Notes: generated by a model from the letters alone, not told the origin. Counted from the first letter of the stretch, positions 13,804-47,266 are shown. The stretch: DNA of 60,958 bases from an uncultured Cytophagia bacterium (GCA_964498785.1 CAZCJL010000030.1:1-60958); one strand, 5' to 3'. Program-made: numbers and translations.

Positions 13804-13935
13804 CCACGAACTACCCTTGCGAAGGTTTTTCAAAACGGGACAAGCTGTATATTGATACATATTCATGAATTATTCATATAGTGTGTTGTAGCGAAACCTT
13901 CTCAAGGGTTTTCCCGACGATATCAAAGTTCCTGG
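13804..13935. repeat. Copy A of a palindromic MITE/REP-like element family. Terminal inverted repeats CTACCCTTGCGAAGGTTT ... AAACCTTCTCAAGGGTT enclose an AT-rich core.
   Basis: About 94 percent identical to the reverse complement of 25420..25563. Shares termini and core with copy C (39186..39290) and the minimal copy D (47229..47266). The spurious ORFs 13881..14069 and 25285..25515 share CCSETFSRVFPTISKFL because they translate this repeat. Confidence 0.8.
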
Positions 13936-14139
13936 GCAGCCTCTTAAGAAAATTCACTCCCTTTTTAAGGAATAAAGTTCATTCTATTGAAACGCGTTTC
14001 TTATATCGACATCAGGCTATTCATGCTTTGTGTTGTCTTTTTACCATTCCCTCTTTTCAATTAATATAACCTTTCCCCCTTGACATTTCAACAAAAAACT
14101 ATTATAATTAATTCAACGAATGAAAATAAAGGATAATTT

Positions 14140-15117
14140 ATGAAATATCGAAATTTTGGCAAAACCGGCATACTGGTTTCGGAAATCGGATTTGGCGCGT
14201 GGGCAATTGGCGGTAGCTGGGGTCATCAGGATGATCGCGACTCGGTGAAGGCGTTGCACAAAGCCATCGATCTGGGTATGAATTTCATCGACACTGCCGC
14301 GGGGTACGGCGATGGCAGAAGTGAAAAAATCATCGCGCAGGTGTTGAAAGAGCGTAGTGATAAAAAAATCTATGTCTGCACCAAAACGCCGCCGTCACCG
14401 GGCGAATGGCCGCCATCTCCTTATGACAGTGCGGAAGCCCGGTATTCTGAATCATATCTCCGCAAAAATGTGGAGCAACGGCTCAAAAATCTGAATACTG
14501 ACTGTCTGGATGTCCTGTTACTTCACACCTGGACCCGGGCGTGGAACCATGATCCTGCGCCGCTGGAAATTCTAAAAATGTTAAAAGATGAGGGTAAAAT
14601 CCGCAATATCGGGATATCCACGCCGGAGCACGATCAGAACTGCGTTATCGATTTGATGCGCCGGGATTACCTGGATGCGGTGCAGGTCATTTACAATATT
14701 TTTGAACAGGAACCGGCCGCTGAATTGCTGCCTGTCGCCCTGAAAAAGCAGGTCGGTATCATCGTGCGGGTGGCGTTTGATGAAGGCGTTTTGACCGGAA
14801 AATACCCGGCAGACAGTGCGTTCCCGGAAGGTGATTTTCGTCAAAACTATTTTGCAGGGGACCGGCTGGAACGAGCCGTAAATCGCGCGAAAAAGATTGA
14901 ACAAGACATTGCAGATACCTGTTTATCGCTGCCAGAGGTCGCGTTGAAATTTGCCAAGTCTCATGACGCCGTAAGCACAGTAATTCCGGGCATCCGAAAT
15001 GTGCAGCAGGCAGAGGCGAATATCGCTGTCTCCGATCTGCCGGAACTTTCTGACGATCTAATAAATCGCCTGCACAAACATCATTGGCGCCGGGCGTTCT
15101 GGTATGCAGGGAAATAA
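14140..15117 (+). CDS. Aldo/keto reductase family oxidoreductase.
   Basis: MKYRNFGKTGILVSEIGFGAWAIGG...GMNFIDTAAGYGDGRSEKII and later conserved aldo-keto reductase blocks. Confidence 0.8.
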   Translation: MKYRNFGKTGILVSEIGFGAWAIGGSWGHQDDRDSVKALHKAIDLGMNFIDTAAGYGDGRSEKIIAQVLKERSDKKIYVCTKTPPSPGEWPPSPYDSAEARYSESYLRKNVEQRLKNLNTDCLDVLLLHTWTRAWNHDPAPLEILKMLKDEGKIRNIGISTPEHDQNCVIDLMRRDYLDAVQVIYNIFEQEPAAELLPVALKKQVGIIVRVAFDEGVLTGKYPADSAFPEGDFRQNYFAGDRLERAVNRAKKIEQDIADTCLSLPEVALKFAKSHDAVSTVIPGIRNVQQAEANIAVSDLPELSDDLINRLHKHHWRRAFWYAGK

Positions 15118-15120
15118 TAA

Positions 15121-15759
15121 CTATTTTTGCCCGATGAATTGAAAACCAACGGCGTCATGTCCGTTCATGGTCGTTAAATGAATTTCTTCAAAATGGATTT
15201 GCTGAAAGCGGGACGTCAGTTCGGTAATCCAGTTACGGTCATGATGCCGCAGCACAGCGCCTTCCGGCAATTTAAAGACGCCGTATTTTTGGTAAACATC
15301 TTTGATCTTAGCATAGCGCCGAATATTTCGCGCATCACGCTGGAGCAACAGATCGCTGATATAAATGAAAGCGCCCGGTTTTAATAACTGGTAAATTTCA
15401 TCAATGATTTTTTGCTGACCATCATCTGTGGGGACGCATGTGAGAACGGCAAATAAAATGACCAGATCGAAGGAAGTGCGTTTCTTAAATCGGAATTGAA
15501 CAAGCAGGTTCAGATGAGGATACATTCGCAATCCCCGTTTTATCATGCTTTCTGCCGGATCAATGCCAATCACATTGGAATAGCCGTGTTCCCGCAACGC
15601 GGCGCAGGTTCGGCCATAACCGCAGCCATAATCCAGAATCGCTGCATCTGTCGAGATGCATCTTTCCAATAAATCAATTTGCAGCGGATGGCTGAAATTT
15701 TTCTGTTCCGCGACCCGGTTCCAGTATTCCAACTGAACATTCAGCGATTTACTATCCAT
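15121..15759 (-). CDS. Class I SAM-dependent methyltransferase, translationally coupled to the upstream giant gene (8-nt overlap).
   Basis: SAM-binding motif I ILDYGCGYGRTCAALREHGYSNVIGIDPAESMI. Overlaps the stop of 15752..21436. Confidence 0.75.
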   Translation of the reverse strand: MDSKSLNVQLEYWNRVAEQKNFSHPLQIDLLERCISTDAAILDYGCGYGRTCAALREHGYSNVIGIDPAESMIKRGLRMYPHLNLLVQFRFKKRTSFDLVILFAVLTCVPTDDGQQKIIDEIYQLLKPGAFIYISDLLLQRDARNIRRYAKIKDVYQKYGVFKLPEGAVLRHHDRNWITELTSRFQQIHFEEIHLTTMNGHDAVGFQFIGQK

Positions 15760-18700
15760 TCTCCCCGCTCATTCGGGCGATTTTCAGATAATAGTAACGC
15801 AGCAGATCCTGCTCTTTTTTGCCGAGCACCTGTTCCTCAATGCGCAGGATACGCTCCACATCACGCAGCGCGCGCAATACGTCAATGGGGACTTCGCGCA
15901 TTTGGTGCGGGATTTGGGTGAGGTAATTGACCGCGTCGATCAGGAACTGTCGCATGTAATCATCCATAACCCCACGCAACAGACCGGCAATCTGACTGCC
16001 CAACCGATGCACTTCCCCCGGCTCGATGGTGAACGGAATGTCTGGCACGCCTTTTCGATCAGACAACGAATTAATCGCCAGCGCCAGTTCCACAAAACTC
16101 TCCACCTGCTGTTTGATCGGCTGGCGAATGAGTTCCCACATCTCCGCACGAATCGTACTGATTTCTACGGGGACCCGCATCAACTGCCGCATGGTTTCCG
16201 CCCATTGCGGCTCGATTTCCACGGAAATGTCTTTTCTCAAATTATCAAAATCAGTATTGAATAGATCTGGTTGCAGCAGGATCGACACATCCGGGCGGAA
16301 TGCCGGTAATACATCCGGGATAATGCGGTCGCCACTGAAAAATTCGGAAACATTCAATCCCTGTCGTCGCAACAGTTCTTTTTGCATCATCAGAATGAAA
16401 CCGGGAATGGAGTGATTATCTTCTTTTAAAATCAAAAATGCGGAATTTCCTGCCCGGAATGATGGTTCCATTTCCCTGATGTATGGCAGCGAAAGATCGT
16501 GATAAATACGCAGTGTATGCAGAATATCATGCACCGGCAGCAGCGGCAAAATGCGTTCGCTAATCACCATTAGTCCATCACTGTTCGCGAACTGCTTTTC
16601 CGCAAATTCACTGAGGGCACGGAACAGACCGGTAGTCAACTGATTCACACCTAAAATGACAGTCTGCGCCCGGTTATGCCCGATGGCCCGAAACAGGCTG
16701 CCATGTTTCAATAACGGCAGTGTTTGCGCTAATCGTTCAATGATCTGCTGCCCCTGATTCCCCGGGGTTTGTTGTCCCGGACGAACTGTCGGGCGATCGC
16801 GCAGCGTGGGAGTTGCCCTGGAAATAAAATAGGAGATCACATGAATCCCGACGACATCCTCTTCCCTGCCATAAAGAATGTGCTGATAATAGCGCGACAC
16901 CAGTTCGATAAACTCATTGAAAATCTCATCCCGGCGTCCCATGGTCAGCCGTTCCAATTCCTCCCATCCGCGGGACTGAAATCGCAGCCGGGTTTCCTGA
17001 AGTGGTTCATCGGCGCGAGACAGCTCGCCTTCATAGTATTTCTGGGCTTTTCCGACATGATACAGCAACCGTGCCCGTTCGTAAGCGGAAAGATGGCGCA
17101 GTTTTTCTGCAACATTGCTTTGAAACGTCCGGAAATCACCACCGACCAGCACACCGCGCAACGGGCTTTGCGCGAATTCAGTACTGCGGCGAGCGGAATC
17201 TTTTAGCACACCAGCGAGATTTGCCAGCGAATCCCGGGAATACAGCACGGATTTTCCGGCGTTTTCATCATAATAGCCACCCTGTCGCTGCATCGGCTCG
17301 CCGCTGCCCAATTTGATCCGCACCTTGCCAACCAGTCCCCGTTCCGCCAGCCAGCGGATCGACCGGTGTTTTGCCTCGCGGTACAACATTGCGCCAGCGG
17401 GTTGACTCACCTGCTGGCTTAAATCTGAGCCAGCGAAAAATAATTCACACACCATTTCCTCAAAGCGCTCGGCAGAATTCTGGGTCAATCGCTGACTCTG
17501 TCCCGTATATTCCCAGATGCGATCCAGATAGGATTCGAGATTCCGAATGGTTTTGCCGTCTTCGAATAACGGGATCAAACTAACCGCCGGAATAACAGCT
17601 TCCGGATGTTCTCGAGTAATTTCCTCCCACCGTGAGCGCATTTTTCGATCCAGCATAATTAGCGCTTCGGGATCAGTGGACATGCTGACCTGCAGTCCCA
17701 TCACCATTCCCGGTGTGCCGTATTTCCCGGCAATCTCATTGATTTCTACAATATTATGCACCGTGGTATCGATTGCGAATTGGTCCTGCGCCAGAATCAT
17801 TTTTTGATGAATGCGCGGGGTCAACATAAACCGCCGCAACAGGCTTCTGAAAAATCCGGCATGCAGCGCGATATCCGGATGATGCAGGTTGCGCTCGATT
17901 TTCGGCAACAATGCAAATAATGTTTTGCGCAACCGCTTATTCAATGAAAAATAATATTCCAGATTTTCCCGTCGTTGCACGCGCAACCGAAGCATTTTTC
18001 GTTCCAGACTGTCATTGTGCTGCCAAAGTGCAGTCAGCGGATCTCGGGCCAAATGCAGTTTCATTCCCACTCTTCTCAATAATCCAATATGCAAATCGAA
18101 CGGCAACACCCGCTGATAGCGTTTCTCCAATTGATTGGTGAGGTAAGTAATTTCATTCAGCAATTTTCGGAATTGTACAATTCTGTTTTCCAGCGTCTCG
18201 AGATCATTGAATAATTCAGGGTCAAGTTTTATGGATTGATCCACCCGCAGCAATGTTTTTAAGAATTCTGCTTGCAAATGCACGTTTTCCACAACAACCG
18301 CAGCCACCAACCGGTGTCCTTGTCCCGATGGACGAGAGCTGCCATCCCAATCGCCCCAGAAAGAGATCAAAGATTTTAGAGTGACGTCATTATGCCAGTG
18401 CGCCCATTCTTCAGCCTCAATAATCGAGTGTAAATCCAGTACCAGCTCGTCCGCTTCCTCAATAGAATTGATATGCACGTTCATGCCCAGAAATTCATCT
18501 GTTAGCTCATTTGCAAGTGCATGAATCGTTTCCCGTGGAATATCAAGGCCATAGATGAAATTTTCCAGTATTTTGTCAATGATTAAATCGACTTTCAGCG
18601 CGTACATTTGCGTGGGATGGACCGTCCGGTCGAACAATCGTTTTCGAAACGTGACAGATCGTTCTTCAAGGGATTCTTTGTGCAGCTCTTTTTCCAGAAT

Positions 18701-21436
18701 GTGAATTAATTTTGTCCGTTGCGAACCGTTCACTTCATTTATAATCATCTCCGCCAATTGAATTCGATCGCGATGTTTTTGTCTGAAAACCAGAAATCGC
18801 TGTGGCAAATAATCCGCATTGAACTGACGCATCATTTTTGGGATATTAAAATGCCTGGCAACCGGCTTTAGCTTTTTTGATAACAGAACACCAGCTTCGG
18901 AGGCAGTACGTTTCAGGAATTCATCAAAAACAATCGCGTACTCCGAAAATAAGCCCGTCGTTTTGAATTGCGCCGGCGTAAGCTCTCTGCGAGTATAGTT
19001 AAGGGATTCTTCAGCGATCAGCCGGTTCAGATCGATCAGCACGCGCCGGGTTTTCTGTCGCAGAATGCCGGCGTCATCCACACCACCAAGTGTGAGACGG
19101 AATGAGTTTCTGCCGATTTCATAACCCTTCGCTGTTCTGGCAAATGTAGACAAAGGAATCAAGCCAATCCCCTGCAACGCCAGTTTGGAAGCCAGCCAGT
19201 CCAGTGAAATACCTGTTGGCAATTTCCGGATGATCATATTGGGATACATCGCTCCCTGCGGTCTGCGGATTTCGATTTGATACGGATTGCGGTCCGACGG
19301 CAAATTGGCGCATGCTATTTCCAACGCTTGCATGCGTTTCTCAAAAATCCGGTTGCGCCAGGTCCAAAACGTCGCGATCTTTTCATAACTGTTTCGATAA
19401 AAAAGATAGGAAAGCAGCGTTGCCATCAAATTCGGACGGATCAGTCTATTCAATTCGGAGAATTGGTTTTTAAGACCCGCATGCGGGATTTCCGCAACAG
19501 CCATGCGTGCACCGGCAAAACAATCGGTTTTAGACAGCGAATGCACTGTAATTCCATACTGCGCCAGCTCCCGTCTTATTTGGCCTTTTACCACCATATC
19601 ACTAATGATTTGCCGAACCGATTTTGGTCCGCTCAAATTGTGAGCCGGCGCGACATTTTGATATGCCAGATCATCGATAACAAACACACGCTGTTCCAGT
19701 AGCCATTTTATTAATCTCTTCACATCGTTTTCACCAAACACATAGCCGCTGGCATTATGCGGATTATTCAGCACGACTGCGCCATGATCGCGCCAACCCG
19801 GATCATCCTCTACTTTACTCCGGACGGCATTGATAATCCCGTCCACATCCAATGACAAATCGTCATTTAGCGAAATTGCAATGACACGCGGGAAACAGTG
19901 CTCATACGTCCAGCTCATATCCGGTGTGATTACTTCATCGATCCCGCAATGAAAACCGAGCAAACTGAGCGCTGTTCGCGCTGAGCCGCTCACCACAAAG
20001 CAATCTCGTTGTGAATACTCCGGATGATGTTTCAGAAAGGCATTTAAAAAAGCCTGTTCTAAATTGGCGTGCCACTCCGAATCATTTAAATGAGTGAAAA
20101 ATTTGGCTATAATTTCAAACGGCGATAATCCTGTGAACGGGTCAAACATGCGCGCTTTTTCAGGCAGATAACTTTCGAGTGTACGATACACATCGCTACT
20201 GCGATTTAACACCGGCCTCACGTGAGATGTTGCTTGTGCGGCATGGTTTTCAACAATAGCACAAAGACGCCGTACAATCCGGTTCACCTGGCGATTTTGT
20301 GGAAGCATGAGGTTAGCGTCAGAATTTTCCGGGAAAATATCAATCACATCCGCAAAGCTGTTCGGTTCGTCCTGTTTCGTGTTGAGTTTTTGATCCAGCA
20401 AAAATGTGAACAGTTCCACCTCTGCCGCTGCTGGAGTTCCTTTTAATTGAAAATGAACAGTCTCGAAAATTTTTAAGAATTCGGAATTCCCGGTCATGAA
20501 TGAAATTGATAGCGCGGAAAAACGCGCATCGATTGCTGATGGTGAAATAATCCGAATCACGCGATTTAACAGACCGGCTTCCCGCGCCAGCGACAGGTGA
20601 TTTGGGGCATCGTTGGTTTCAATAAACATAATCGGATGTTTTAAACAGAGCCGGCGGAGTTCACGACGAACTTCTTCACAGGGAATATCGCCCAGAATCA
20701 AAAATACGGGCTGCGAAGAATTCTGTTGAAAGAATGATCCCAGCGCCGGTAAAACAGACTGATCAGTGTCTGGCAATGAATGAAATATCAGTGACGAATA
20801 CTGTCGCAAATGCTCTGGTATCTTCACTCCTACCAAAAAAATGTGCGCCGGCAGATCGAGCAGATAGTGTGAAAGCGAATGAAAAACTATCCGCAAATCT
20901 TCCCCCAAACCGCCATTGGAAAAAATAATTTCCCGGCAGCCTGTTTCCGTACCCGGATCGTAATCCAGTGGTTCATATTGATGTCGGGTGAGCCATTCAC
21001 GAATGAGTACTGCCAGTTGATTAGGATTTTTCTTATTGAATCCGCCACGGGGCATATAAGCAGTACTGTTTTCAATCGCCCGAGTAATCAATTGAGGGAT
21101 GTCACCGCGTTGATTCGAATTATAATCCCAAAAATAATTTGACTGACCTTCCCCGCCAGAATCCCGGATGTTCAACCCCAACACGATGCAACTGTACATA
21201 TCACTTAACCGGCGATCCTGGATCGGATTCCCGATGTGAAAATTAACACGTTCGTCCGGCTTCACCGGAGATGATGCGGTCGCTTCGCTAATTTCCGAAA
21301 CCTTTGCCGCTTTCAGCGGACGCAACCGAAACGAGGATTGCAAGCGATGTTGTGATTCAAATTTATTCATATTTTCTATGGAGTTATGGCATGGCAGCGA
21401 CTGCCTCGCTGCATGCCGCCGTTTTTCAGCCGGCAA
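15752..21436 (-). CDS. Giant (~1.9 kaa) cytoplasmic protein of unknown function. It has a degenerate PLP-aminotransferase (class I/II fold)-like domain, then an intact-looking aminotransferase-fold domain, then ~1100 aa of unassigned mostly helical sequence. The start is uncertain: TTG 21436 or ATG 21370.
   Basis: Domain 2 has NNPHNASGYVF (compare NPxNPTG) and SLSKTDCFAGARMA (compare SxSKxxGxxGxRxG, the PLP lysine). Domain 1 (NFHIGNPIQD...YMPRGG...LIREWL...IIFSNGGLGEDLRIVFHSL...IISPSAIDARFSALS) keeps the fold pattern but has SPSA where SxSK is expected, so it lacks the lysine. No Walker A motif or HEXXH. Confidence 0.6.
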   Translation of the reverse strand: MPAEKRRHAARQSLPCHNSIENMNKFESQHRLQSSFRLRPLKAAKVSEISEATASSPVKPDERVNFHIGNPIQDRRLSDMYSCIVLGLNIRDSGGEGQSNYFWDYNSNQRGDIPQLITRAIENSTAYMPRGGFNKKNPNQLAVLIREWLTRHQYEPLDYDPGTETGCREIIFSNGGLGEDLRIVFHSLSHYLLDLPAHIFLVGVKIPEHLRQYSSLIFHSLPDTDQSVLPALGSFFQQNSSQPVFLILGDIPCEEVRRELRRLCLKHPIMFIETNDAPNHLSLAREAGLLNRVIRIISPSAIDARFSALSISFMTGNSEFLKIFETVHFQLKGTPAAAEVELFTFLLDQKLNTKQDEPNSFADVIDIFPENSDANLMLPQNRQVNRIVRRLCAIVENHAAQATSHVRPVLNRSSDVYRTLESYLPEKARMFDPFTGLSPFEIIAKFFTHLNDSEWHANLEQAFLNAFLKHHPEYSQRDCFVVSGSARTALSLLGFHCGIDEVITPDMSWTYEHCFPRVIAISLNDDLSLDVDGIINAVRSKVEDDPGWRDHGAVVLNNPHNASGYVFGENDVKRLIKWLLEQRVFVIDDLAYQNVAPAHNLSGPKSVRQIISDMVVKGQIRRELAQYGITVHSLSKTDCFAGARMAVAEIPHAGLKNQFSELNRLIRPNLMATLLSYLFYRNSYEKIATFWTWRNRIFEKRMQALEIACANLPSDRNPYQIEIRRPQGAMYPNMIIRKLPTGISLDWLASKLALQGIGLIPLSTFARTAKGYEIGRNSFRLTLGGVDDAGILRQKTRRVLIDLNRLIAEESLNYTRRELTPAQFKTTGLFSEYAIVFDEFLKRTASEAGVLLSKKLKPVARHFNIPKMMRQFNADYLPQRFLVFRQKHRDRIQLAEMIINEVNGSQRTKLIHILEKELHKESLEERSVTFRKRLFDRTVHPTQMYALKVDLIIDKILENFIYGLDIPRETIHALANELTDEFLGMNVHINSIEEADELVLDLHSIIEAEEWAHWHNDVTLKSLISFWGDWDGSSRPSGQGHRLVAAVVVENVHLQAEFLKTLLRVDQSIKLDPELFNDLETLENRIVQFRKLLNEITYLTNQLEKRYQRVLPFDLHIGLLRRVGMKLHLARDPLTALWQHNDSLERKMLRLRVQRRENLEYYFSLNKRLRKTLFALLPKIERNLHHPDIALHAGFFRSLLRRFMLTPRIHQKMILAQDQFAIDTTVHNIVEINEIAGKYGTPGMVMGLQVSMSTDPEALIMLDRKMRSRWEEITREHPEAVIPAVSLIPLFEDGKTIRNLESYLDRIWEYTGQSQRLTQNSAERFEEMVCELFFAGSDLSQQVSQPAGAMLYREAKHRSIRWLAERGLVGKVRIKLGSGEPMQRQGGYYDENAGKSVLYSRDSLANLAGVLKDSARRSTEFAQSPLRGVLVGGDFRTFQSNVAEKLRHLSAYERARLLYHVGKAQKYYEGELSRADEPLQETRLRFQSRGWEELERLTMGRRDEIFNEFIELVSRYYQHILYGREEDVVGIHVISYFISRATPTLRDRPTVRPGQQTPGNQGQQIIERLAQTLPLLKHGSLFRAIGHNRAQTVILGVNQLTTGLFRALSEFAEKQFANSDGLMVISERILPLLPVHDILHTLRIYHDLSLPYIREMEPSFRAGNSAFLILKEDNHSIPGFILMMQKELLRRQGLNVSEFFSGDRIIPDVLPAFRPDVSILLQPDLFNTDFDNLRKDISVEIEPQWAETMRQLMRVPVEISTIRAEMWELIRQPIKQQVESFVELALAINSLSDRKGVPDIPFTIEPGEVHRLGSQIAGLLRGVMDDYMRQFLIDAVNYLTQIPHQMREVPIDVLRALRDVERILRIEEQVLGKKEQDLLRYYYLKIARMSGENG

Positions 21437-21441
21437 TAATT

Positions 21442-22419
21442 TTATTCTACGTCCTGAACTTCTTTTTTCTCAATCGACTGGATCATATTCTGGAGCATTT
21501 TTTTCAACAGCCCCATAAATTGAGAGCCTTCTGCCAGGTCTTTTGATGAAAGTGACACTACCGTGCGCGCGTTGCGCAAATTCTGGCTCGCTTCTGCTAG
21601 TTGCGCGACTTGAGGCGTTAAAATAAGCAATTCGGGATGATCAACTAACATTTGTATTTCTTTTTGATCCATTTCCAATTGCATTTTTTTTACTTTCAGC
21701 TCCTCATCCACTCGATGAAGGGCCAAAACAGCTTCCTGTTCTTCCGCTGTTTTCTTCAATGCAATTTTCTTCATTTCAAGATCATGCTCATAGTTTGCAA
21801 TCTGTTCATCTGCCTCGGATTTAGCGCGGGCTGCGGCGACACGTGCGTTTTGACTGTATATTTCCGTCTGCTCCAGAATGCGCGCAGCTTCCTGCTGCCG
21901 GATCGCCTCAGATATCTTTTTATCCGCTGGTTCCACGGATTGAACGTTCACTGCCATCACTTCCAATCCCAATTTCTCTTCTGAATCCTTCAGGCGACTA
22001 TCCACGTGCTTTGCCATCTTATCGGATGCTAATTCCTCGATGGCATACTTTTCGGTAAACTCCCGGACAAATGAATTTGTCACCACTTCCAGTTCTCGCG
22101 TTGCCTGTGCGACCGCATCTTTGTTCCAGCCACCGACACGGATCAGCGCGGATAAATGTTTCAGCGAGGCCGCAACCGTCACTGCCAGTTTCACCTGAAC
22201 CGCGATCCGTCCCTTTGCATCCGCCTCGATGGTGTGCACTGTTGAATGTACTTTTGCCAAAATTGTTAAACTAAAATGCCGCGGATAAATCCGGGCCCTG
22301 CGCCGGCGAACCTGACCATCTGATTCGTATAAAACAATGTAATCCGGTCGTGACAATCGATATTCAAACAGAATTAGCGCCAAAATAATGGCTGCAATGA
22401 TGGCGATTGTAAGCACCAT
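21442..22419 (-). CDS. SPFH/band-7 (flotillin-like) membrane protein with a C-terminal coiled coil. The ORF track start is 22434; ATG 22419 has the better ribosome-binding site.
   Basis: N-terminal transmembrane helix VLTIAIIAAIILALILF, an SPFH-like core, then an EA-rich heptad region (EAIRQQEAARILEQTEIYSQNARVAAARAKSEADEQIANYEHDLEMKKIALKKTAEEQEA). GGAGGG lies 6 nt before ATG 22419. The stop is 5 nt before the giant gene. Confidence 0.7.
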   Translation of the reverse strand: MVLTIAIIAAIILALILFEYRLSRPDYIVLYESDGQVRRRRARIYPRHFSLTILAKVHSTVHTIEADAKGRIAVQVKLAVTVAASLKHLSALIRVGGWNKDAVAQATRELEVVTNSFVREFTEKYAIEELASDKMAKHVDSRLKDSEEKLGLEVMAVNVQSVEPADKKISEAIRQQEAARILEQTEIYSQNARVAAARAKSEADEQIANYEHDLEMKKIALKKTAEEQEAVLALHRVDEELKVKKMQLEMDQKEIQMLVDHPELLILTPQVAQLAEASQNLRNARTVVSLSSKDLAEGSQFMGLLKKMLQNMIQSIEKKEVQDVE

Positions 22420-22568
22420 ATTTCCCTCCGTCATCTGATGTTTTATGTGTTACTGTTTTCTCTCAGTGCAACGTCATTCATCATCGCACGATTCGAACAG
22501 ATAAATTCTATTAATATACGTAATTTTTCTGTCAATCAAAAATAAAAATTAAATTTTCATTTTGGAAT

Positions 22569-23330: not shown

Positions 23331-23376
23331 TTATGTGATCCTTTTGTTAGCCACACCTGTCTATCCAATACACAAA

Positions 23377-23407
23377 GATTTCCGAAGTCTCGGAGACTTC
23401 GGAAATC
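23377..23407 (-). terminator. Strong 13-bp hairpin downstream of the TPR-like gene (minus strand).
   Basis: gatttccgaagtc-tcgga-gacttcggaaatc, a perfect stem, followed on the minus strand by UUUGUGUAUU. Confidence 0.5.
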
Positions 23408-23467
23408 TGCTACCCGTTAGCTTTTGCTGCTTTTACAGTTAAAATCCCCACCAGAATCCGCGCCAAC

Positions 23468-25148: not shown

Positions 25149-25419
25149 AAAGTCGCCTCCATATTATTTAGAGTGGGACACGAATCATTGACATTTCATT
25201 TAATATAATCCTTTTCCTCTTAAAATCAAGTAAATACTCAACTGTGTGATAACTTTTATACTGAATTCAGGAAACGGTTTTTTTTCAAGCGGCATTTTGG
25301 GAAATTGTTATGAAGCGTTTGGCAGCAGGAAGGATTATACGCAGGTGAAGGCGCGCACGAAATTCCTTCACCTGAATGCCCTTGTTATTCTGAAGAGTTA
25401 GCATCCTTGAACAGCGGGT

Positions 25420-25563
25420 TACCAGCCTGTCCAGGAACTTTGATATCGTCGGGAAAACCCTTGAGAAGGTTTCGCTACAACACAATATATAGATAAATTC
25501 ATGAATATGTATCAATATACAGCTTGTCCCGTTTTGAAAAACCTTCGCAAGGGTAGTTCGTGG
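25420..25563. repeat. Copy B of the palindromic MITE/REP-like element, inverted relative to copy A.
   Basis: The reverse complement matches 13804..13935 with only a few central mismatches. Lies between the stop of the OMP gene and the zupT upstream region. Confidence 0.8.
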
Positions 25564-25571
25564 ACAGGTTC

Positions 25572-26285
25572 TTACAGCCCCATAATCAAACCGGTCATGA
25601 TTTTAAAATCACTGGATCGCTGCGTGCCATCCAATTTGCCGGATTTTATCTGGTTGATCAATCCAATTGTATATTTAGTGACAACGGATAAATGAACTCT
25701 GCTACTAAACGGATACGACACACCCAGTCCCACATCTATTCCCAAGTTGTATTTTGACAGGTTTCCCTTTATGTCATATTTTAATTTTTCAAATTCAGGA
25801 GCATCATATTCAGATTTAAATTTTTCACTGGCAGATAACAGGAATCCCAGGTTCGGACCGGCGAGAACAAATGTATTGAAAAATTTGGTTTGATGCGATG
25901 CTTTCATGTGTAATGGCAGTTCGATGTAACGCAAATCCTGCACAAACCAGAATTTTCCCAGCTCTGTGCCCTGTTCGTCGGTTCCCACCATTTTGGTGGT
26001 GCTTCCACCAGCCTGACTATAAAAAAGTCCGGTTTCCACTGATAAAAAATCCGAAACAGAAATTTCTACAGAGCCGCCAGCTAACAATCCATTTTTATGA
26101 TGATTATAGGGACCGAACGTAAAAACCGGCAGGCTATTTTCAGGCGCCAATCCGGTATTTGAAAATCCGGCCCATACACCGATGAGGTATTTACCCGGAT
26201 TATTATTATTGTTTACCGAGCCAGCAGCAAATAACTGAGCTCCTAAAAGCACAATGAACCCACAAAGGAAAATTGCTTTTTTCAT
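25572..26285 (-). CDS. Outer-membrane beta-barrel protein (porin/OmpA-like barrel family).
   Basis: Signal peptide MKKAIFLCGFIVLLGAQLFAAG, alternating amphipathic beta-strand pattern, and a C-terminal aromatic-rich strand. Shine-Dalgarno GAGGAG. Confidence 0.6.
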   Translation of the reverse strand: MKKAIFLCGFIVLLGAQLFAAGSVNNNNNPGKYLIGVWAGFSNTGLAPENSLPVFTFGPYNHHKNGLLAGGSVEISVSDFLSVETGLFYSQAGGSTTKMVGTDEQGTELGKFWFVQDLRYIELPLHMKASHQTKFFNTFVLAGPNLGFLLSASEKFKSEYDAPEFEKLKYDIKGNLSKYNLGIDVGLGVSYPFSSRVHLSVVTKYTIGLINQIKSGKLDGTQRSSDFKIMTGLIMGL

Positions 26286-26979
26286 ACTAAAATCTCCTCT
26301 TGAATAATATTAGTGATTTATTGTTGGAAATAAGCTACCAGAGCCAATCCATTTTCAGGGGGATCTCTGATCATTGGACATAATCAAAAGATAATGAAAT
26401 ATTTTATGGATTATGGTAGCAATTTTTTATATGGGTGGGTTCCTCGAATGTTTTTATTTGATCTATCAATTAATTGACTGTCGGAATATGATCCGGGTTC
26501 CGTTCTCTTTTCTAAAAACGATCGAATTGGATATTGCTTTTTAAGAATCATATTTATATATTACAACACGTAAACATAATCATCATTGAAATTTGGAGTG
26601 TATTACACCTGTGCGCCTCAGGAGCATTTATGCAATGCCGAAGAGTGAAATCCATAAAGGGATTTCACTCCGGCGAATAGACTTTAGGGAATTTAAGAAT
26701 CACCGGATTTTAAAAAGGAGATCATAATGCTAAAAAAATATTTCTTTTTTTGTTGAAAAAAGAAAATGGAAATTGGCATAAAAAATGGTCTGGCTGCAGT
26801 TGGATTGAATGATAACATTTCTCTAAAAGGATAAATTAATTTTTACATAGAGAATGCGGATGTCACAGATCACAACGATGATTTTTTAGCGACAATTCTA
26901 TTTTAAAAAAACCGTGATGATCAGCGTAATGCGTGTCATCCGTGCGCTATCAACTCGTCAATAATAATGAGGTTTAAGC

Positions 26980-37637: not shown

Positions 37638-37676
37638 AAAAAGTGGCCATCTCATCAAAAGTAATGGTCACTTTTT
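37638..37676. terminator. Hairpin terminator after the SurA-like gene, with a T-run on the plus strand.
   Basis: aaaaagtggccat-ctcatcaaaagta-atggtcacttttt, followed by cattctttttt. Confidence 0.45.
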
Positions 37677-37692
37677 CATTCTTTTTTAAAAA

Positions 37693-39135: not shown

Positions 39136-39185
39136 ATTTAATTTTTAAAATTTCTACACGATGTGTCATCTATAATTGCCGGACA

Positions 39186-39290
39186 AACCCTTGCGAAGGT
39201 TTGTAGCCATACAATATATAGATAATTCATTGTAATTTTTTCAATATACAGACCAGTATATTTTTATAACCTTCGCAAGGGTAGTTCCGA
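39186..39290. repeat. Copy C of the palindromic MITE/REP-like element (about 105 bp).
   Basis: cccttgcgaaggttt ... acaatatatagataattcat ... aaccttcgcaagggtagttcc. Lies between the stop of 39369.. and the start of the SurA-like gene. Confidence 0.75.
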
Positions 39291-39368
39291 TACAGGCTGT
39301 GTGGAGACATCACACATTATTTTTTAGTTAAAAATCCGTGTGGATCAGTGTCAATCCGTAGCAAAATT

Positions 39369-42300: not shown

Positions 42301-43004
42301 CACTGAAGACCGCGCACAGCCATTCGTAATCCCAGTCCACCTCGATCGGGTTCAGCAGCGATTGGTTTTGGAAGGCTATATCCCAGTAATCTTTTTTTAT
42401 ACTGGAAATCGTCCATTACAAAATAGCTTTCTTCATCCGCATTTTTCTGGTCTTTACCAAAATAGCCATTCCAGTGCCCACTCCATCCGGGGTCGTTGGC
42501 ATCTTTCATTTTATCGGGCCAATAGGGAGGCCAGGTAAACGCCTGATGGCTCATGGAAACTGCATGGAACGGGTCTTTGTCTCGCTGGGTCAAATTATAG
42601 TAACCAGGAATCGGCTCAAATCCGAGAAAAGCGCCGAGTGAGTCATGAGAGAATCGGTCTGGGTCCCAGCCCTGACAAAATATGGCAGGGGTAACATACT
42701 CGAATGTAGAGTCGCCGGTAACAGAATCGGTCCCTGCATATACTCTTAACCTGGACATTACGTAAGTTGAAGTATTTCCCATCTGCACCATCCCTGTTCC
42801 GATAGGCCACTCGCCGGCGTAAACAGTTGCCTGATCCCCTTTGATACCGCCCATCATTCCGTGATTATGGAAAGTTACACGGATTAAATTGCCGGCATGA
42901 TCATTTCTCGCCCGGTACAGGGTACTTCCATGACCGATTTCTTCGGCAGTTGCATTTAGCCCTCCCAGCAGGAATACCAGCAGCAAAAGAATTTTATATT
43001 TCAT
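39369..43004 (-). CDS. Large secreted protein with thrombospondin-type-3-like calcium-binding Asp-rich repeats, fibronectin-III-like domains and a variant T9SS C-terminal domain. ORF track start is 43094; ATG 43004 is preferred.
   Basis: Shine-Dalgarno AAGGAGATGA before MKYKILLLLVFLLGGLNATA. DGIDNDGDGIDGDGVIIDE and DDGIDNDEDWD...DGKPGTGDAGEGDGIPTPGYGD. C-terminus VPNPYVV...CTIRIYAVDGTLVRKLEH...GVYIYHV...GRILIIK. Confidence 0.65.
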   Translation of the reverse strand: MKYKILLLLVFLLGGLNATAEEIGHGSTLYRARNDHAGNLIRVTFHNHGMMGGIKGDQATVYAGEWPIGTGMVQMGNTSTYVMSRLRVYAGTDSVTGDSTFEYVTPAIFCQGWDPDRFSHDSLGAFLGFEPIPGYYNLTQRDKDPFHAVSMSHQAFTWPPYWPDKMKDANDPGWSGHWNGYFGKDQKNADEESYFVMDDFQYKKRLLGYSLPKPIAAEPDRGGLGLRMAVRGLQWSNPDAEDCLFWLYEIRNFGELYLNSTLFGINVGASSGALLGENTDWDDDVARFYREKALAVNYDWDDSGTRQYSPVPWVGFAFLESPGNPYDGIDNDGDGIDGDGVIIDETMFEPKFYGVGDQIVMIDYNSDTYERAVVTMPEEGARFTVNGITYTKKPNSPIQEIERNGIDDNLNGLIDENDGAMTQDSVWYYLYIRSEYNDQDYKAKDYINSIGLANYLIDERRDDGIDNDEDWDILFDDVGLDGKPGTGDAGEGDGIPTPGYGDLPGEPNIDQVDVDESDQIGLTSFKFYQYGDVTYSNDPQMWDISRPGYFDTGSREREDYDYVFSCGFFPLMPNQEEFLSISMVYGWDEVDILRNKEVIQKIYNSNYNFAVAPMKPKVTAIAEDQKVTLFWDDQAEYSFDRFLKQYDFEGYKIYRATHHTFEDAGQITDGLGYERFKQPIAIYDKIDSVFGYFPVTFGTGVQFNLGNETGLVHTFVDSQLTNGLKYFYAVTAYDRGDLEKNIGPTENTIFVNVDPAGNIQLAENVVAVVPQAPALGYVPPGFDQEPQMVGSGKTSGRVAVKFLQPNSLSDGHEYEIQFLDQSLDLFDNDFDSLIDKADIDEMMPNMTTGFVLKNLTTETVIDTVWFYNYRYEQDGYKLISNLFDDRDGDPQTLTTVVNGMKIFVYNPPAGVIDLPDSTIYNGIQWSDNIDYSTAYNLKFGAFAMYGFKPGVAYPRQYEIVFYDELVTETSYLGVPLAATGKPIPIPSTQVNYRIYDKATGEEVPFAVSDAAVKSTITPKGFFSAKDRIIFFEEFEDTTIITFSLLNNAVQDTNFFNEYGRILGAGDTLSLYPDFPFNGNTAFRFKVTGQKYDNQYAKKNLDKIKAVPNPYVVTAIWEPHNPYTSGRGPRSLQFIHLPPKCTIRIYAVDGTLVRKLEHDSGTIGKYDSSEYDGSESWDLLTEDNMDIAYGVYIYHVDAPGIGEHVGRILIIK

Positions 43005-43029
43005 AATATCATCTCCTTTTGGAACATGA

Positions 43030-44124
43030 TTAGAACGAAAAGATAAGTGAAAATTTATTTGTTCGATCCAAACGGCCAAAATCAACATTGGCATAATCCA
43101 GCGCCATTTCAGAATTTAAAATGTTGAAGTGAAATCCAAAACCAAAGGTCAAACCTCCCTCCCGGTTTTTCAGGAACAATTGACGATAACCTCCGCGAAG
43201 CGCAATCAGGTCATAAATTTTAATTTCGGACCCCATGTTTAAATATTCCCTGTTGTCGTTTGGGTGCACCGCATCAACAGCAACGACGAGATCATAGTTT
43301 TTCGTGTCAAAGAAATCTTTCGCCAAATTAGATGAAATGCCGACCCTGAACAAAATCGGAAGCGGGAAGCTATCGGTTTGCAGATTGGCGTTAATGTTTT
43401 GATTGTTCCCGGCGACCTGTTCAGAAATATCGTGCTGAATCAACAAATCTCTGCCATCCATTTTCAGATCCGTACCAAAGTTAGAAATGGACATGCCGAT
43501 GGTCAAATTTTTGAACCTCGTATGGTACAGGACTCCGACATCAAATGCCACAGCAGAAGAATGGCAATGCCAGATGGTTTCTTTCACGTATTTAATACTA
43601 CCGCCAATGGAAAAGCGGTCAGTCAATCCTCTGGCATAGCTTAAACCGGCTGCGAAAGAATTTGCTGATACTTTTTCACCGTTACCATCGGGAAATTGAA
43701 CAGTAGTCCGTTCAATATCCGGCATTCCGAGATACGCAATCGAAAAACCAAAAGTGCCCACAGACGGAATGGGAATGGCAACACCTCCGAACATATAGCT
43801 CAAATCTGCAATATAATCGAAATGATTAAACACTATTTGTTTGTTACTAATATTCGCCAGCCCGGCCGGATTCCAGAACAATCCTGTCACGTCTTCAGCC
43901 CGGGTTGAATAAGCCTCCCCCATGGCTAATGCACGGGCTCCTACACCAATTTTCAAAAATGGGGCAGCAGTGGTTCCCACACGACTGACAGATTGTGCAT
44001 TTACGGAGATGAATGAGCATGTAATTATGATTAATGCAATCCACAGATAAGCCGGCCGTACCCAATTCGCGTTTATGGACTGAGGATTTCCTCTGTCTCG
44101 TAGGATATTTTGCTTGTTATTCAT
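43030..44124 (-). CDS. PorV/PorQ-like (UPF0164) outer-membrane beta-barrel protein, T9SS-associated.
   Basis: Signal/anchor then TAAPFLKIGVGARALAMGEAYSTRAEDVTGLFWNPAGLA, which is the hallmark N-terminal block of PorV/PorQ-family proteins. Beta-barrel periodicity and C-terminal FSLIFSF. Confidence 0.6.
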   Translation of the reverse strand: MNNKQNILRDRGNPQSINANWVRPAYLWIALIIITCSFISVNAQSVSRVGTTAAPFLKIGVGARALAMGEAYSTRAEDVTGLFWNPAGLANISNKQIVFNHFDYIADLSYMFGGVAIPIPSVGTFGFSIAYLGMPDIERTTVQFPDGNGEKVSANSFAAGLSYARGLTDRFSIGGSIKYVKETIWHCHSSAVAFDVGVLYHTRFKNLTIGMSISNFGTDLKMDGRDLLIQHDISEQVAGNNQNINANLQTDSFPLPILFRVGISSNLAKDFFDTKNYDLVVAVDAVHPNDNREYLNMGSEIKIYDLIALRGGYRQLFLKNREGGLTFGFGFHFNILNSEMALDYANVDFGRLDRTNKFSLIFSF

Positions 44125-44138
44125 AGTTATACCTCATT

Positions 44139-47120
44139 TTAATTATAACTAATTCGGAAACCGAATTGAATAAATCTTGGCGAAGAATACATACCTGGCC
44201 GGGTATAAAATTCATCAATATTGGATATTTCCAGGAATCTGGTTCTTTGCCCATAACCTTCCAGCGTAAAATCCGGTTGTCCGGTATCGGCATAGACATA
44301 ATTCGCATTTCTGGTATCCAGCAGATTGCTGACATTGCAAAATGCCTGTAACTGCCATAATCCGAATCGGAATGATTTCATGATGCGCAGGTCTACATTA
44401 TATTTCAGAGGTGAGCGACCGCTGTTCTCCCGAAGGCCAATATAAGCCGCGCCTCCGGTAGCTTCGGAGCGTGCAAATTCCGGGGTATATGGCAATCCCG
44501 AATTCACATTGCCGATGAGCGTTGCTGTCCATCCTTTTATTGAATAGTTCATTACGAGATTCAGAGATTGCCGTTCGTCCCAATCCAGATTGACAAGTTG
44601 CACATGCGGCTCCCGTTTACTTTGCAAATTAGTATATGCGTCCCGTGGATCCGATGACGTTCCCTGTACTGTCATAAAAGTATAATCCATATTAATGGAA
44701 AACTGTTTCAGGCGATAGGACGATGATAATGTGATTCCTTTCGCTGTGGCATTATCACGGTTTTCCCATTTATAATAGGTTAATCCTTTGTATGTATCAA
44801 TCGGAAACCCTGGACCTACCCAATCCCGAATATCCCGGTAAAAGCCTGTGAGATGGATGAAAAGATCATCCCGAAGTTGTTGTTGCAAACCAATCTCGTA
44901 CATCACAGACCGTTCGGATTTTAAATCCGCATTTCCGACAAGATTTTCTGATCCAGCGCCCTCGATCCAGAAATTGGGATTTTGATATAAGTAGCGGAAT
45001 TCCGGATTCTGGAAAAAATGACCATACGAAAAATGAATTACCCCTTTTTCTGTGATCGGAAATGAAAGTCCGAACCGGGGACTGATCTGGGATTTCGTAC
45101 TCGGCTTGTTGTACCAGAATTGCTCCCGTTCCTCGATCGTGTATTCGACCAGCTCGCTGTCCGGCGTTGTCGGCGTATAATTATTGTAAACATGATCGAT
45201 TTTAAATGGCCGGTAAATTTGTGGGTCCTTGGGATCAGCTAAAATTCTGCCATCAGAATCGAAATAATCATAACGAATACCCATATTGATAATGAGCTCA
45301 TTAAATTCGATTTTGTCCTGAATGTATGCGGCAAATTCCCTCGGCTTCGCACTGTAATTTATATGAAACGGCGAATTTTCCGGTGGAATGAGCGGGCGAT
45401 AATCCACTTGCGAAAACTGAAGATCAAAGTAATCATTGGAAATATCATGAAATCTGCCTGATAGTCCTGTTTTCATCAAATGGCGTTTGGTAATCTGGCT
45501 GGTAAGATCAAGGTTAAATGATGCATATTTTGTTTTGGTCGTCGTACGCCGCGGATCATTTCCCCAGTAGGCAAAATCGTTTGAACGGGATGATATGGAT
45601 ATGTTATCATCCCGCTGCGGTCGAAACACATACTGCTCAAAATCACCTGGCTGCGTGGGCATATAGCGGTAATCGAACGGATCTTCATAAAGATAATTTT
45701 TGTGATCATTCACGTAATAGCTGCCTTTTAAATCAAGGAAGGTACTTCGCGAAAATATGTATGTCATGGATAATATCTGAGTGTAACGATCCGTATAATA
45801 ATATCTGCCGGCATCTGGTACATATTTAAATCGATAATCCGGATATGAACCACCCAATCTGTAACTTTTATCGTGATTATAGTAAATGCCGTAACTGAGA
45901 TTTAGATTTCCACTGACATTGAAATAAATTTTAGATTGCGTTGAAAATCCCTCGTACCAATTGAGAGGAACTATTTCATTATCCGGGGTTTCAAAGGTAT
46001 GCACGCTATCCGAAACCGGTGACCGGAACCCCCAGGGCATAAAATAGCGTTTTCCATGGTTATAACCCGGGCTGTATTGATACCGTCCTGAAATGAAATA
46101 TGATATTCGTTTTTTTGTACCGGGAATCGGCCCGGAAATGTTCATCTGCAAATCTCTTTGATTAAACGGATTATAGCTATTTAAATAGGGCTCTTTTTTC
46201 TGCCAGGGTTTTTCCATGGCTTCCACCGATTGAATCAGTTCATCGATGGATTCAATACCATCCCGTGAAAAATCATAATTCGGATAGGGATTCTGCATAT
46301 TCAACGTCCTGGCCATATCGTTTGCCCAGGCGGTATTGTCCATCACATAGTAAACATCATCTGCCAGGCTGAAATGATCGCCGAAATATGTGGTGAGGTT
46401 CATGGTAAATTTATCAGCCCCTTTCTTGGTGACGATATTCACCACGCCGGAAAGCGCCTGCCCGTACTCGGCATTAAAAGTGCCTGTAATTGCTTTCAAT
46501 TCCTCGATTGCCTGATCATCCACGCTTATGCCGGAGCTTCGGTTCAGCGGATTAATGACCTGTACACCATCCACCATATAGATAATTTCGTTAGTTCTTC
46601 CCCCGCGAATATGCAGATCGCCGGACGCATCTTTAACCACGCCTGCCTGCAGATTCACCAGCTCGGATACGCTGCGCACCGGCATCTGATCGATCTGGTC
46701 AGAACCAATCGACCTCTCGGATGAAGTTAAGTCCTTTTGAATGGGAGATCGCTCTGCTGTGACAACAACCTCTTCTCCCATATCTAGAATTGTGCCCGAC
46801 AATTGAAAATTCAGTTTTGTTGTCAAATCCACAGTGACACGAATATTTTCCATTCGCTGGTTTTGATAGCCAATCATCCTGGTAACCACAGAATAGACGC
46901 CCGGAGGGATATTAATTATGTAATATTCTCCATCCATATCGGTGGCAGCCCCCATCAGTGTCCCTTCGATAATGACATTTGCACCGACCAACGGATCACC
47001 GGTTTCGCTATCCACCACTTTACCGGCAATCTTGCCCGTTGTTCCCGCAAAACTGTCTGCGCTGAACAGAAGTAACATCGTCACTACAGAGATGACCACG
47101 ATTCCTGATTTTTTAGGCAT
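44139..47120 (-). CDS. TonB-dependent-receptor-like outer-membrane protein (CarboxypepD_reg domain, plug, 22-strand barrel).
   Basis: Shine-Dalgarno GAGGAGG. Signal peptide. GKIAGKVVDSETGDPLVGANVII..GT..GA.TD.DG.Y.I..P.G.Y is the CarboxypepD_reg domain. Plug motifs DLHIRGGRTNEIIYMVDGV and GVVNIVTK. Long barrel. It ends RISYN rather than the canonical aromatic residue. Confidence 0.6.
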   Translation of the reverse strand: MPKKSGIVVISVVTMLLLFSADSFAGTTGKIAGKVVDSETGDPLVGANVIIEGTLMGAATDMDGEYYIINIPPGVYSVVTRMIGYQNQRMENIRVTVDLTTKLNFQLSGTILDMGEEVVVTAERSPIQKDLTSSERSIGSDQIDQMPVRSVSELVNLQAGVVKDASGDLHIRGGRTNEIIYMVDGVQVINPLNRSSGISVDDQAIEELKAITGTFNAEYGQALSGVVNIVTKKGADKFTMNLTTYFGDHFSLADDVYYVMDNTAWANDMARTLNMQNPYPNYDFSRDGIESIDELIQSVEAMEKPWQKKEPYLNSYNPFNQRDLQMNISGPIPGTKKRISYFISGRYQYSPGYNHGKRYFMPWGFRSPVSDSVHTFETPDNEIVPLNWYEGFSTQSKIYFNVSGNLNLSYGIYYNHDKSYRLGGSYPDYRFKYVPDAGRYYYTDRYTQILSMTYIFSRSTFLDLKGSYYVNDHKNYLYEDPFDYRYMPTQPGDFEQYVFRPQRDDNISISSRSNDFAYWGNDPRRTTTKTKYASFNLDLTSQITKRHLMKTGLSGRFHDISNDYFDLQFSQVDYRPLIPPENSPFHINYSAKPREFAAYIQDKIEFNELIINMGIRYDYFDSDGRILADPKDPQIYRPFKIDHVYNNYTPTTPDSELVEYTIEEREQFWYNKPSTKSQISPRFGLSFPITEKGVIHFSYGHFFQNPEFRYLYQNPNFWIEGAGSENLVGNADLKSERSVMYEIGLQQQLRDDLFIHLTGFYRDIRDWVGPGFPIDTYKGLTYYKWENRDNATAKGITLSSSYRLKQFSINMDYTFMTVQGTSSDPRDAYTNLQSKREPHVQLVNLDWDERQSLNLVMNYSIKGWTATLIGNVNSGLPYTPEFARSEATGGAAYIGLRENSGRSPLKYNVDLRIMKSFRFGLWQLQAFCNVSNLLDTRNANYVYADTGQPDFTLEGYGQRTRFLEISNIDEFYTRPGMYSSPRFIQFGFRISYN

Positions 47121-47228
47121 TATGTCCTCCTCGCAACAGAAATAAAGTAATTATTAAACCGCAAAGTCCACAAAGAAATCACAAAGTTCACAGATAATGC
47201 CTCTGTGTACTTTGTGTATCCTTTATAG

Positions 47229-47266
47229 ACCCTTGCGAAGGTTTTGAACCTTCGCAAGGGTAGTTA
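47229..47266. repeat. Copy D, a minimal version of the MITE/REP-like element: the two terminal inverted repeats fused as a hairpin.
   Basis: cccttgcgaaggtttt-gaaccttcgcaagggtagtt. Confidence 0.7.

Follow-up and report, generated by a model that had tools for sequence, protein, structure and literature searches.

Repetitive extragenic palindromic (REP) sequences and REPINs, the latter built of two inverted complete REPs, reportedly go together with a REP-associated tyrosine transposase (RAYT, also called TnpA-REP), an association attributed to Nunvar in 2010. To our knowledge, almost all work on REP–RAYT systems has concerned Proteobacteria. Here, we analyze a 60,958-nucleotide stretch of DNA from an uncultured Cytophagia bacterium (GCA_964498785.1, CAZCJL010000030.1:1-60958; ‘the window’ hereafter, at its full length), which carries four related palindromic repeats, copies A to D, between positions 13,804 and 47,266. 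The four copies are very probably members of a REP family, mobilized in trans by a RAYT encoded elsewhere in the genome.

The REP/REPIN–RAYT systems closest to this family are described by Bertels and Rainey (2011, PMC3116915), Messing (2012, PMC3479197, with the structure PDB 4ER8), and Quentin (2018, PMC6006769). REPs lie mainly downstream of coding regions, and most families of the GTAG superfamily, reported in Chloroflexi and Planctomycetes, have stems of 6–9 bp (Di Nocera 2013, PMC3733652). Among RAYTs, subclass 2.1 (Group 1 of Bertels) is characterized by the motifs NH[YF]H, FQ, and Y[IV]HLNP, a C-terminal extension that carries an SS motif and a helix-turn-helix-like domain, and the absence of nearby REPs (Quentin 2018, PMC6006769). 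RAYT groups occur in Caldilineae, and horizontal transfer over long time scales has been allowed for (Bertels 2017).

The family described here resembles REP–RAYT systems in most respects: its members are short, palindromic, extragenic repeats dispersed at unrelated loci, mostly downstream of genes; singlet hairpins coexist with longer hairpin-forming versions; a Y1/HUH gene with HUH and Y...NP motifs is flanked by them on both sides; and site occupancy differs among close relatives. It departs from most GTAG REP families in its long, perfect stem of 13–18 bp, from REPINs in that its long forms consist of one stem with a 64–69-nt interior, and from REPIN–RAYT systems at large, described as mostly vertical and lineage-specific, in that the genomes sharing its stem are assigned to several phyla. 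With the IS200/IS605 insertion sequences it shares the enzyme superfamily (Y1_Tnp), a presumed recognition of hairpins on single-stranded DNA, and the lack of a canonical target duplication. However, the hairpins of IS200/IS605 lie inside the element ends in direct orientation, and the transposase travels with the element in many identical copies, whereas the gene found here matches TnpA-REP and not IS608 TnpA in the PDB, and the hairpins far outnumber the gene in the loci examined.

A hairpin unit tied to RAYT genes

The basic unit of the family is a hairpin with a 13–15 bp stem, (A)(C)CCTTGCGAAGGTT / AACCTTCGCAAGG(G)(T). Copy D consists of nothing but this unit and was aptly described in a first-pass annotation of the window as two fused termini, with a 3-nt loop connecting its arms. 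The other three, A, B, and C, take a REPIN-like long form in which the same stem closes an AT-rich interior of 66–68 nt; in A and B, a second, lineage-specific stem extends outward from it. In every window copy, direct reading and alignment of the sequence identified the arm ACCCTTGCGAAGGTT with its reverse complement, AACCTTCGCAAGGGT, lying downstream, and in all four AGTT follows the second arm. This confirmed the four positions proposed earlier and refined their limits as follows:

13804-13949, minus strand (opposite to the other three): copy A, long form, delimited by sequence, alignment, and motif matches
13813-13827 and 13895-13909 (one mismatch): core arms of copy A, enclosing an AT-rich interior of 67 nt
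13910-13927: 17-nt bulge of copy A, between the core and an outer stem, CCCACGAAC / GTTCCTGGG
25418-25571, plus strand: copy B, long form of 154 nt, with limits set by the empty site in relatives
25457-25471 (one mismatch) and 25540-25554, then AGTT: core arms of copy B
25427-25438 and 25556-25567: outer inverted repeat of copy B, CTGTCCAGGAAC / GTTCGTGGACAG, with a 17-nt bulge at 25439-25456
About 39180-39295, plus strand: copy C, diverged long form, with arms at 39187-39201 and 39268-39282, then AGTT, and an interior of 66 nt
47229-47265, plus strand: copy D, minimal REP hairpin with a perfect 15-bp stem and a 3-nt loop, then AGTT
13663-13689, no strand assigned: possible decayed element end, 89% complementary to the outer end of copy A, GGTGGTTCCTGGGGCTGTAT

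The last of these is a weak candidate, a single 27-nt match with no core arm alongside. The arms are far from what chance would place in the window: the 14-mer CCCTTGCGAAGGTT, with at most two mismatches, occurs eight times, as four inverted pairs, against a mean of 0.33 in dinucleotide-preserving shuffles, none of which reached eight in 100 trials. No solo arm was found in the window, even with four mismatches allowed. By itself, each arm holds only a 4-bp mini-palindrome, CCTT-NNN-AAGG, and the interior shared by A and B is an imperfect palindrome centered on ATTCATGAAT. Single-strand folding with DNA parameters recovered the 15-bp core stem in all four copies, with z-scores between -3.4 and -9.1: A folds at -20.5 to -23.5 kcal/mol (z = -3.4 to -4.3), B has z = -3.9 to -4.3, C has z = -6.8 to -7.5, and D folds at -18.7 kcal/mol (z = -8.7 to -9.1). 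An outer stem, GTCCAsGAAC, lengthens the hairpins of A and B across the 17-nt bulge. The arms being exact reverse complements and all four copies folding, the shared, hairpin-forming termini postulated in the first-pass annotation are real.

The repeats do not result from faulty assembly. In the independent Logan assembly of SRR7048225, one contig (L001) breaks off exactly inside C and another (L081) starts inside A, and the family is present in many other assemblies, which disposes of mis-joining as a source of the similarity. REP hairpins, in turn, explain why short-read assemblies of this organism break at these points.

The evidence that connects the hairpin to a transposase comes from other genomes. 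In one metagenome locus (L040), two short-form hairpins lie 600 nt apart with a 185-aa open reading frame (ORF) between them, whose product matches Pfam Y1_Tnp (E = 1e-9) and contains an HUH motif, PNHYHFLL, and a tyrosine motif, RYIHLNP (RYIHLNPVRAGL). Database homologues at E <= 1e-10 number 4,722; many of them carry the Joint Genome Institute (JGI) name ‘REP element-mobilizing transposase RayT’, and many sit on ~1-kb contigs, as would be expected if assemblies break at the flanking repeats. Seven further homologues, fetched independently, are 81, 76, 68, 66, 65, 64, and 62% identical and lie on contigs of 41–61% G+C. A hairpin is present on both sides of the RAYT gene in all eight loci, within 250 nt upstream and downstream in the seven that were fetched, and abuts or overlaps the stop codon in several. 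Arm variants at RAYT loci are confined to the two outermost stem positions (AC, AG, AT, AA), except at one locus, where GAGGG pairs with CCCTC through compensatory changes at inner positions. The only PDB match of the protein is 4ER8, the E. coli TnpA-REP (E = 4e-5), and its only NCBIfam match is NF047646, ‘REP-associated tyrosine transposase’ (REP_Tyr_transpos), at 74–79 bits against a cut-off of 80. The hairpin family is thus tied to a clade of 185-aa HUH/Y1 transposases of the RAYT/TnpA-REP kind, and a RAYT gene flanked by hairpins is the defining REP–RAYT (‘REPtron’) arrangement (PMC6006769, PMC3116915). The cognate enzyme that had been sought for the window repeats therefore exists, flanked by the same hairpin, in other genomes.

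Occurrence in other genomes and site occupancy

The first-pass annotation had allowed that the element might prove unique to its four loci. Yet an exact 19-mer of the core, AACCTTCGCAAGGGTAGTT, was found at 67 loci elsewhere, 35 in reference genomes and 32 on metagenome contigs, and the left arm, which lies outside the 19-mer query, is present within two mismatches in ~50 of the 67. By their record titles, the genome loci belong to Anaerolineae/Caldilineae, candidate division KSB1, Caldithrix, Ignavibacteriae, and Planctomycetota, and one metagenome-assembled genome (MAG) of the Anaerolineae/Caldilineae has the exact 19-mer on 13 contigs. Short forms, with 15-bp arms and a 3–8-nt loop, occur in all groups, including next to RAYT genes. 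Over 77 hairpins (L003-L068, L069, L086, and the window), the spacing between arms is either 3–8 nt or falls in a tight cluster at 64–69 nt, and interiors of the latter length occur in at least six unalignable sequence types. These long-form interiors cannot be aligned between lineages, and their composition tracks that of the host, with 18–32% G+C in AT-rich loci and 42–64% in Chloroflexi-type loci. Long forms closely similar to A and B are present in a KSB1-labeled MAG (L017) and on a metagenome contig (L041). Outer inverted repeats also differ by lineage: CTGTCCAGGAAC in the window, CTCTGTTGAT in Caldithrix-type loci, and GAGCGTGTTTGAAAA in two Anaerolineae MAGs. In these two MAGs (L016, L020, L021, L024, L050, and others), the outer repeat GAGCGTGTTTGAAAA...TTTTCAAACAGGCTC is bordered by apparent 3-nt TNA direct repeats (TCA, TGA, TAA) and never occurs without the REP core. 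The ends of this outer repeat presumably resemble those of the IS5/IS1031 group.

Gene positions were counted from crude ORF calls for 72 elements. Nine lie between convergent genes, one between divergent genes, and 27 between co-directional genes, the last in both orientations (17 in one, 10 in the other); seven fall inside called ORFs, and many elements are 0–25 nt from a stop codon. Among 150 flanking ORFs, no Pfam family was enriched and the neighbors are unrelated housekeeping genes, so the elements are dispersed and extragenic and form no part of an operon. A coding function of the core was considered and rejected, both arms being conserved at every base with no third-position pattern. 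A scan of viral contigs for a 17-mer of the arm gave no match, and tblastn with the RAYT against plasmid and phage collections returned only relatives below 40% identity, identifying no mobile vehicle; among these, plasmid-borne proteins with NHVH/NHIH...YIELNP motifs are 30–34% identical to the RAYT. Searching the literature for the core sequence gave only unrelated primer matches. One Anaerolineae long form deserves separate mention: at 88-271 of metagenome contig L043, its interior and right arm are tandemly duplicated, where another assembly (L028) has a single copy, which reflects either true tandem expansion or an error of assembly.

Relatives of the window organism, whose contigs were reached by way of cluster members and window-protein homologues, show that occupied sites vary. 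At copy B, two relatives (L082, L083) have the beta-barrel and ZIP genes adjacent as in the window, but precisely 154 nt are missing from the spacer. The sequence is GGGTTGTAA|CCCGCTG where the site is empty and GGGCTGTAA|154 nt|CCCGCTG where it is filled, and the rest of the spacer is well conserved. This clean presence/absence answers the call for a look at target sites, and the repeat at the junctions, TTACCAGCC / TTACAGCC, is imperfect and 8–9 nt long. Copy B is either a clean gain or a precise loss. At copy A, two other relatives (L079, L080; flanks 92–97% identical) keep the PfkB and aldo-keto reductase genes in the same order and orientation, but the 624 nt at 13448-14071 that include copy A give way in L079 (851-3776) to a 2.9-kb stretch that has three minus-strand genes and lacks the core motif. 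The three genes encode proteins of 318, 296, and 234 aa with no Pfam matches recorded, and the PfkB–aldo-keto reductase spacer is an indel hot spot. At copy C, a relative whose SurA-like protein is 83% identical (L086) has unrelated sequence with no core motif in the orthologous spacer; conversely, it carries a long form of its own at 13040-13133, where the window has an empty site. Because occupied sites differ between such close relatives, the elements are, or recently were, mobile, and they are non-autonomous.

Proposed mechanism, transposon class, and possible spread

By analogy with TnpA-REP and the IS200/IS605 enzymes (PMC3479197, PMC6006769), a single-copy RAYT encoded elsewhere in the genome would recognize the folded stem on single-stranded DNA, for instance at the replication fork, and would cut and rejoin at the foot of the hairpin. 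Such cutting and rejoining could copy or remove non-autonomous hairpins, which would build up at relatively harmless sites immediately downstream of stop codons. A model in which the stem is recognized and its foot is cut would explain why the stem is invariant and the interior free, why bare and long forms exist together, and why no coding capacity is needed. The window copies would have been moved in trans by a RAYT of this kind, and copy B probably moved recently, given that it is missing from close relatives. Any host role, such as protecting mRNA 3′ ends or offering homology for rearrangement, would on the sequence evidence be secondary.

Several findings weigh against assigning the window copies to a RAYT-driven REP family. 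First, tblastn with the RAYT detected no such gene in the window, in keeping with the earlier remark that it contains no transposase, nor in any AT-rich, FCB-type (Fibrobacteres–Chlorobi–Bacteroidetes) locus, and the named NCBI entries among the top 120 homologues are all Chloroflexota; for these reasons, the RAYT acting in this genome is one that we infer. Second, the NCBIfam score falls just under the equivalog cut-off. Third, the RAYT motifs NHYH, FE, and YIHLNP fit the second motif set of subclass 2.1, an assignment made from motifs only, and this subclass was reported without REPs (Quentin 2018), whereas the protein found here is short (185 aa), lacks the distal domain, and has REPs alongside. 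Fourth, the unpaired GTAG tag of many REP families is seen only as GGGTAG at one end, overlapping the stem, and is missing beside RAYT genes. The family is palindromic and RAYT-linked as in the GTAG superfamily, and its dispersed copies have GGGTAG at one end, which is so by construction as they were selected with the 19-mer; but the TAG overlaps or extends the stem and there is no unpaired 5′ tag. More than 90% of superfamily members would be expected to bear the tag, yet 28 copies from outside the 19-mer query end in GTTAA, GTTGA, ATTTC, CTTGT, and the like, and the RAYT-flanking copies, a set chosen without TAG in the query, end in GGGTTAA, GGGTTG, GGCT, etc. Fifth, the imperfect 8–9-nt direct repeat at B and the outer inverted repeats of A and B fit MITEs (miniature inverted-repeat transposable elements) of the DDE type better than HUH transposition.

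This last point leads to an alternative that we consider unlikely, namely that the long forms are classical MITEs, moved by cut-and-paste by a DDE transposase acting on terminal inverted repeats (CCTGTCCAGGAAC here, GAGCGTGTTTGAAAA in Anaerolineae), with the hairpin only as cargo. Bacterial MITEs such as Correia, RUP, and ERIC are likewise ~100–150 nt long, non-coding, palindromic, and intergenic, with strain-variable sites. The outer inverted repeats of A and B, the direct repeat around the clean B insertion, repeat-like flanks at the copies in L017, L041, and L086, and the extended Anaerolineae forms with their outer repeat and apparent TNA duplications would all suit such an origin. However, the terminal inverted repeats of Correia, RUP, and ERIC correspond to those of a DDE insertion sequence, and their target duplications are defined. 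Neither feature was found here: ~430 kb of loci with 150 neighboring ORFs contain no DDE transposase or insertion-sequence-spaced termini, and the direct repeats are imperfect even at the very recent copy B and absent at A. Furthermore, the outer repeats vary by lineage while the inner 13–15 bp stem is invariant, the Anaerolineae outer repeat is always accompanied by the core, and bare hairpins without any outer repeat are common and are the ones that flank RAYT genes. Of the first-pass description as palindromic, non-autonomous, ‘MITE/REP-like’ elements, the palindromic, non-autonomous, and REP-like parts stand; the MITE part, in the sense of classical terminal-inverted-repeat elements, does not, the link being to an HUH tyrosine transposase and not to a DDE enzyme.

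For REPs moved by a RAYT, a wider reading is that a single REP–RAYT lineage with an essentially invariant 13-bp stem is common to very distant bacteria and has thus spread across phyla, that a RAYT of the subclass-2.1 (Group 1) type drives REPs, and that the 64–69-nt length reflects a structural constraint set by the enzyme or a host factor. We regard this as possible, though somewhat short of probable. The firm cases for a cross-phylum stem are the window organism, an FCB-type bacterium bearing a type IX secretion system (T9SS), and Chloroflexota; KSB1, Calditrichota, Ignavibacteriota, and Planctomycetota are represented by MAG labels only. If true, transposase systems held to be vertical and ‘domesticated’ have moved between phyla, which would extend current views and not contradict them, as Bertels (2017) allows for long-term horizontal transfer. 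The occurrence of the same stem from Anaerolineae to T9SS-bearing bacteria, with interiors drifted to host composition, offers a natural test of cross-phylum movement and of what the enzyme reads. The element itself is of a known kind and changes no established view, so the result is modest; the parts of specialist interest are the conservation of the stem across phyla and the possible affiliation with subclass 2.1. For annotation, the four repeats can be explained as selfish or commensal REP hairpins, and not as regulatory sites, CRISPR (clustered regularly interspaced short palindromic repeats) remnants, or mis-joins.

Gene context of the window copies

The window, a complete NCBI contig, is an ordinary chromosomal region that encodes, by Pfam annotation, T9SS-related proteins (PorV, several Por_Secre_tail proteins) and a TonB-dependent receptor with CarboxypepD_reg. 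Named homologues of its SurA-like protein, at 42–51% identity, are from Bacteroidota, KSB1, Melioribacteraceae, Calditrichaeota, and Marinimicrobia, which places the organism no more closely than FCB-type and KSB1-like; the near-identical long form in the KSB1-labeled MAG (L017) is a second basis for the KSB1 affinity. All four copies are intergenic and have the same orientation relative to the flanking genes. Copy B starts at the first base beyond the TAA stop of an outer-membrane beta-barrel gene (25572-26285, minus strand). Copy C is 83 nt past the stop of a 1241-aa gene and 52 nt upstream of the start of a SurA-like gene, and copy D lies between the stop of a CBM9/T9SS-tail protein gene and the start of the TonB-dependent receptor gene; both follow a stop by ~80 nt and precede the next start by 50–110 nt. 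The PfkB stop is 613 nt away from copy A, and the aldo-keto reductase gene starts 190 nt after the copy. The claim that all copies sit directly after gene ends is therefore correct for B, C, and D and incorrect for A.

Such positions just after stop codons raise the question of whether the hairpins are host regulatory RNA, either intrinsic terminators or 3′-end mRNA stabilizers, kept for their function and immobile. The uniform orientation of the window copies would agree with this, as would the seven of seven elements between co-directional genes that share one orientation in AT-rich (FCB-type) loci, and the A, B, and C hairpins are followed by GGGUUU(U/G). Yet there is no orientation bias in Chloroflexi-type loci, and presence/absence in close relatives together with RAYT linkage indicates mobile DNA. 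The terminator role suggested in the first-pass annotation is not supported, as none of the four copies passes a terminator scan with its hairpin-plus-T-run criterion, A, B, and C having only 3–4 U and D no U-run at all; nor would a terminator need a stem that is invariant across phyla. A known structured RNA was also rejected, as Rfam at E <= 1 gave no match at the elements in seven loci covering all element types. RNAalifold on the Anaerolineae long-form interiors supported only the core stem, with almost no covariation inside. Altogether, an immobile regulatory RNA is highly improbable. On the window as a whole, Rfam at gathering thresholds detected no family, and no tRNA or tmRNA gene was found.

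Copies A and B lie inverted ~11.5 kb apart and match at 137 of 147 aligned positions (~93–95%), including a perfect stretch of 68 nt, in line with the ~94% identity first estimated. They share a derived C-to-A mismatch in one arm, which makes them sister copies and, together with the perfect stretch, points to a recent duplication. The 11.6-kb segment that they bound has the gene content listed earlier, which Pfam annotation resolves into an aldo-keto reductase, a methyltransferase, a 1894-aa protein, Band_7, a second methyltransferase, TPR, and ZIP. The 68 nt of perfect identity would physically allow an inversion between A and B, and the Logan assembly gives the segment as a separate contig, L081, which starts in A and is expected from its recorded length to end in B, so that orientation is not fixed there. 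A stronger proposal, that A and B are recombination sites bounding a programmed invertible segment flipped by a site-specific recombinase or frequently by RecA, seems to us most improbable. No recombinase gene exists in or next to the segment, nor anywhere in the window, and two further members of the family, C and D, have no partner. Moreover, relatives without A and B have the PfkB...aldo-keto reductase and outer-membrane protein–ZIP junctions in the same order and orientation as the window; the same arrangement at both junctions identifies the window order as ancestral and constitutes mild evidence against an inversion having occurred. Only this gene order in relatives resolves the orientation of the segment, and dispersal of REPs accounts for the arrangement without any programmed function. 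A reading of the hairpins as invertible promoters was rejected as well, since bare 3-nt-loop hairpins are common and no recombinase is nearby.

Some neighboring features merit a record. Copy A sits 130 nt upstream of the promoter of the aldo-keto reductase gene, a perfect 12/12 sigma-70-type consensus at 14080-14108 (TTGACA, 17 nt, TATAAT) that is kept in L079 and L080 and is unusual enough to note given the Bacteroidota-like secretion machinery of the organism. The 1894-aa protein (15752-21436) has as its only Pfam match an aminotransferase class I/II domain at residues 478-789; its gene is flanked by a methyltransferase gene and a Band_7/flotillin-like gene, and L079 and L080 keep the adjacent methyltransferase gene and the start of the 1894-aa gene. 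Elsewhere in the window, ~669-nt tandem repeats, 80–86% identical, at 219-3731 and 5518-7953 lie within a 1170-aa ORF, the large ORFs that come next contain related units, and an NYPNPFN-type C-terminal sorting motif recurs in several genes.

Other short repeats lie close to the copies. A perfect 15-bp palindromic hairpin, AGCGATCCCATCGCT-TGG-AGCGATGGGATCGCT, occurs once in the window, at 13723-13755, 50 nt from copy A. Beside copy C, at 39330-39365, is a short repeat with CACGGATT (GCTACGGATTGACACTGATCCACACGGATTTTT), several copies of which are present in the orthologous spacer of L086 (6040-6130). A second hairpin family, GGAGTG(C/A)AATGCC-TTTAT-GCATTG(C/T)ACTCC, is found at 13562-13593 and 26641-26672, two matches where 0.19 would be expected, and also in L010, L017, L041, and L086. 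In L017, L041, and L086, a long-form REP is nested in the loop of this second family, with loop-like sequence on both sides, and the second family possibly represents a further REP family of the lineage, one that serves as a preferred target.

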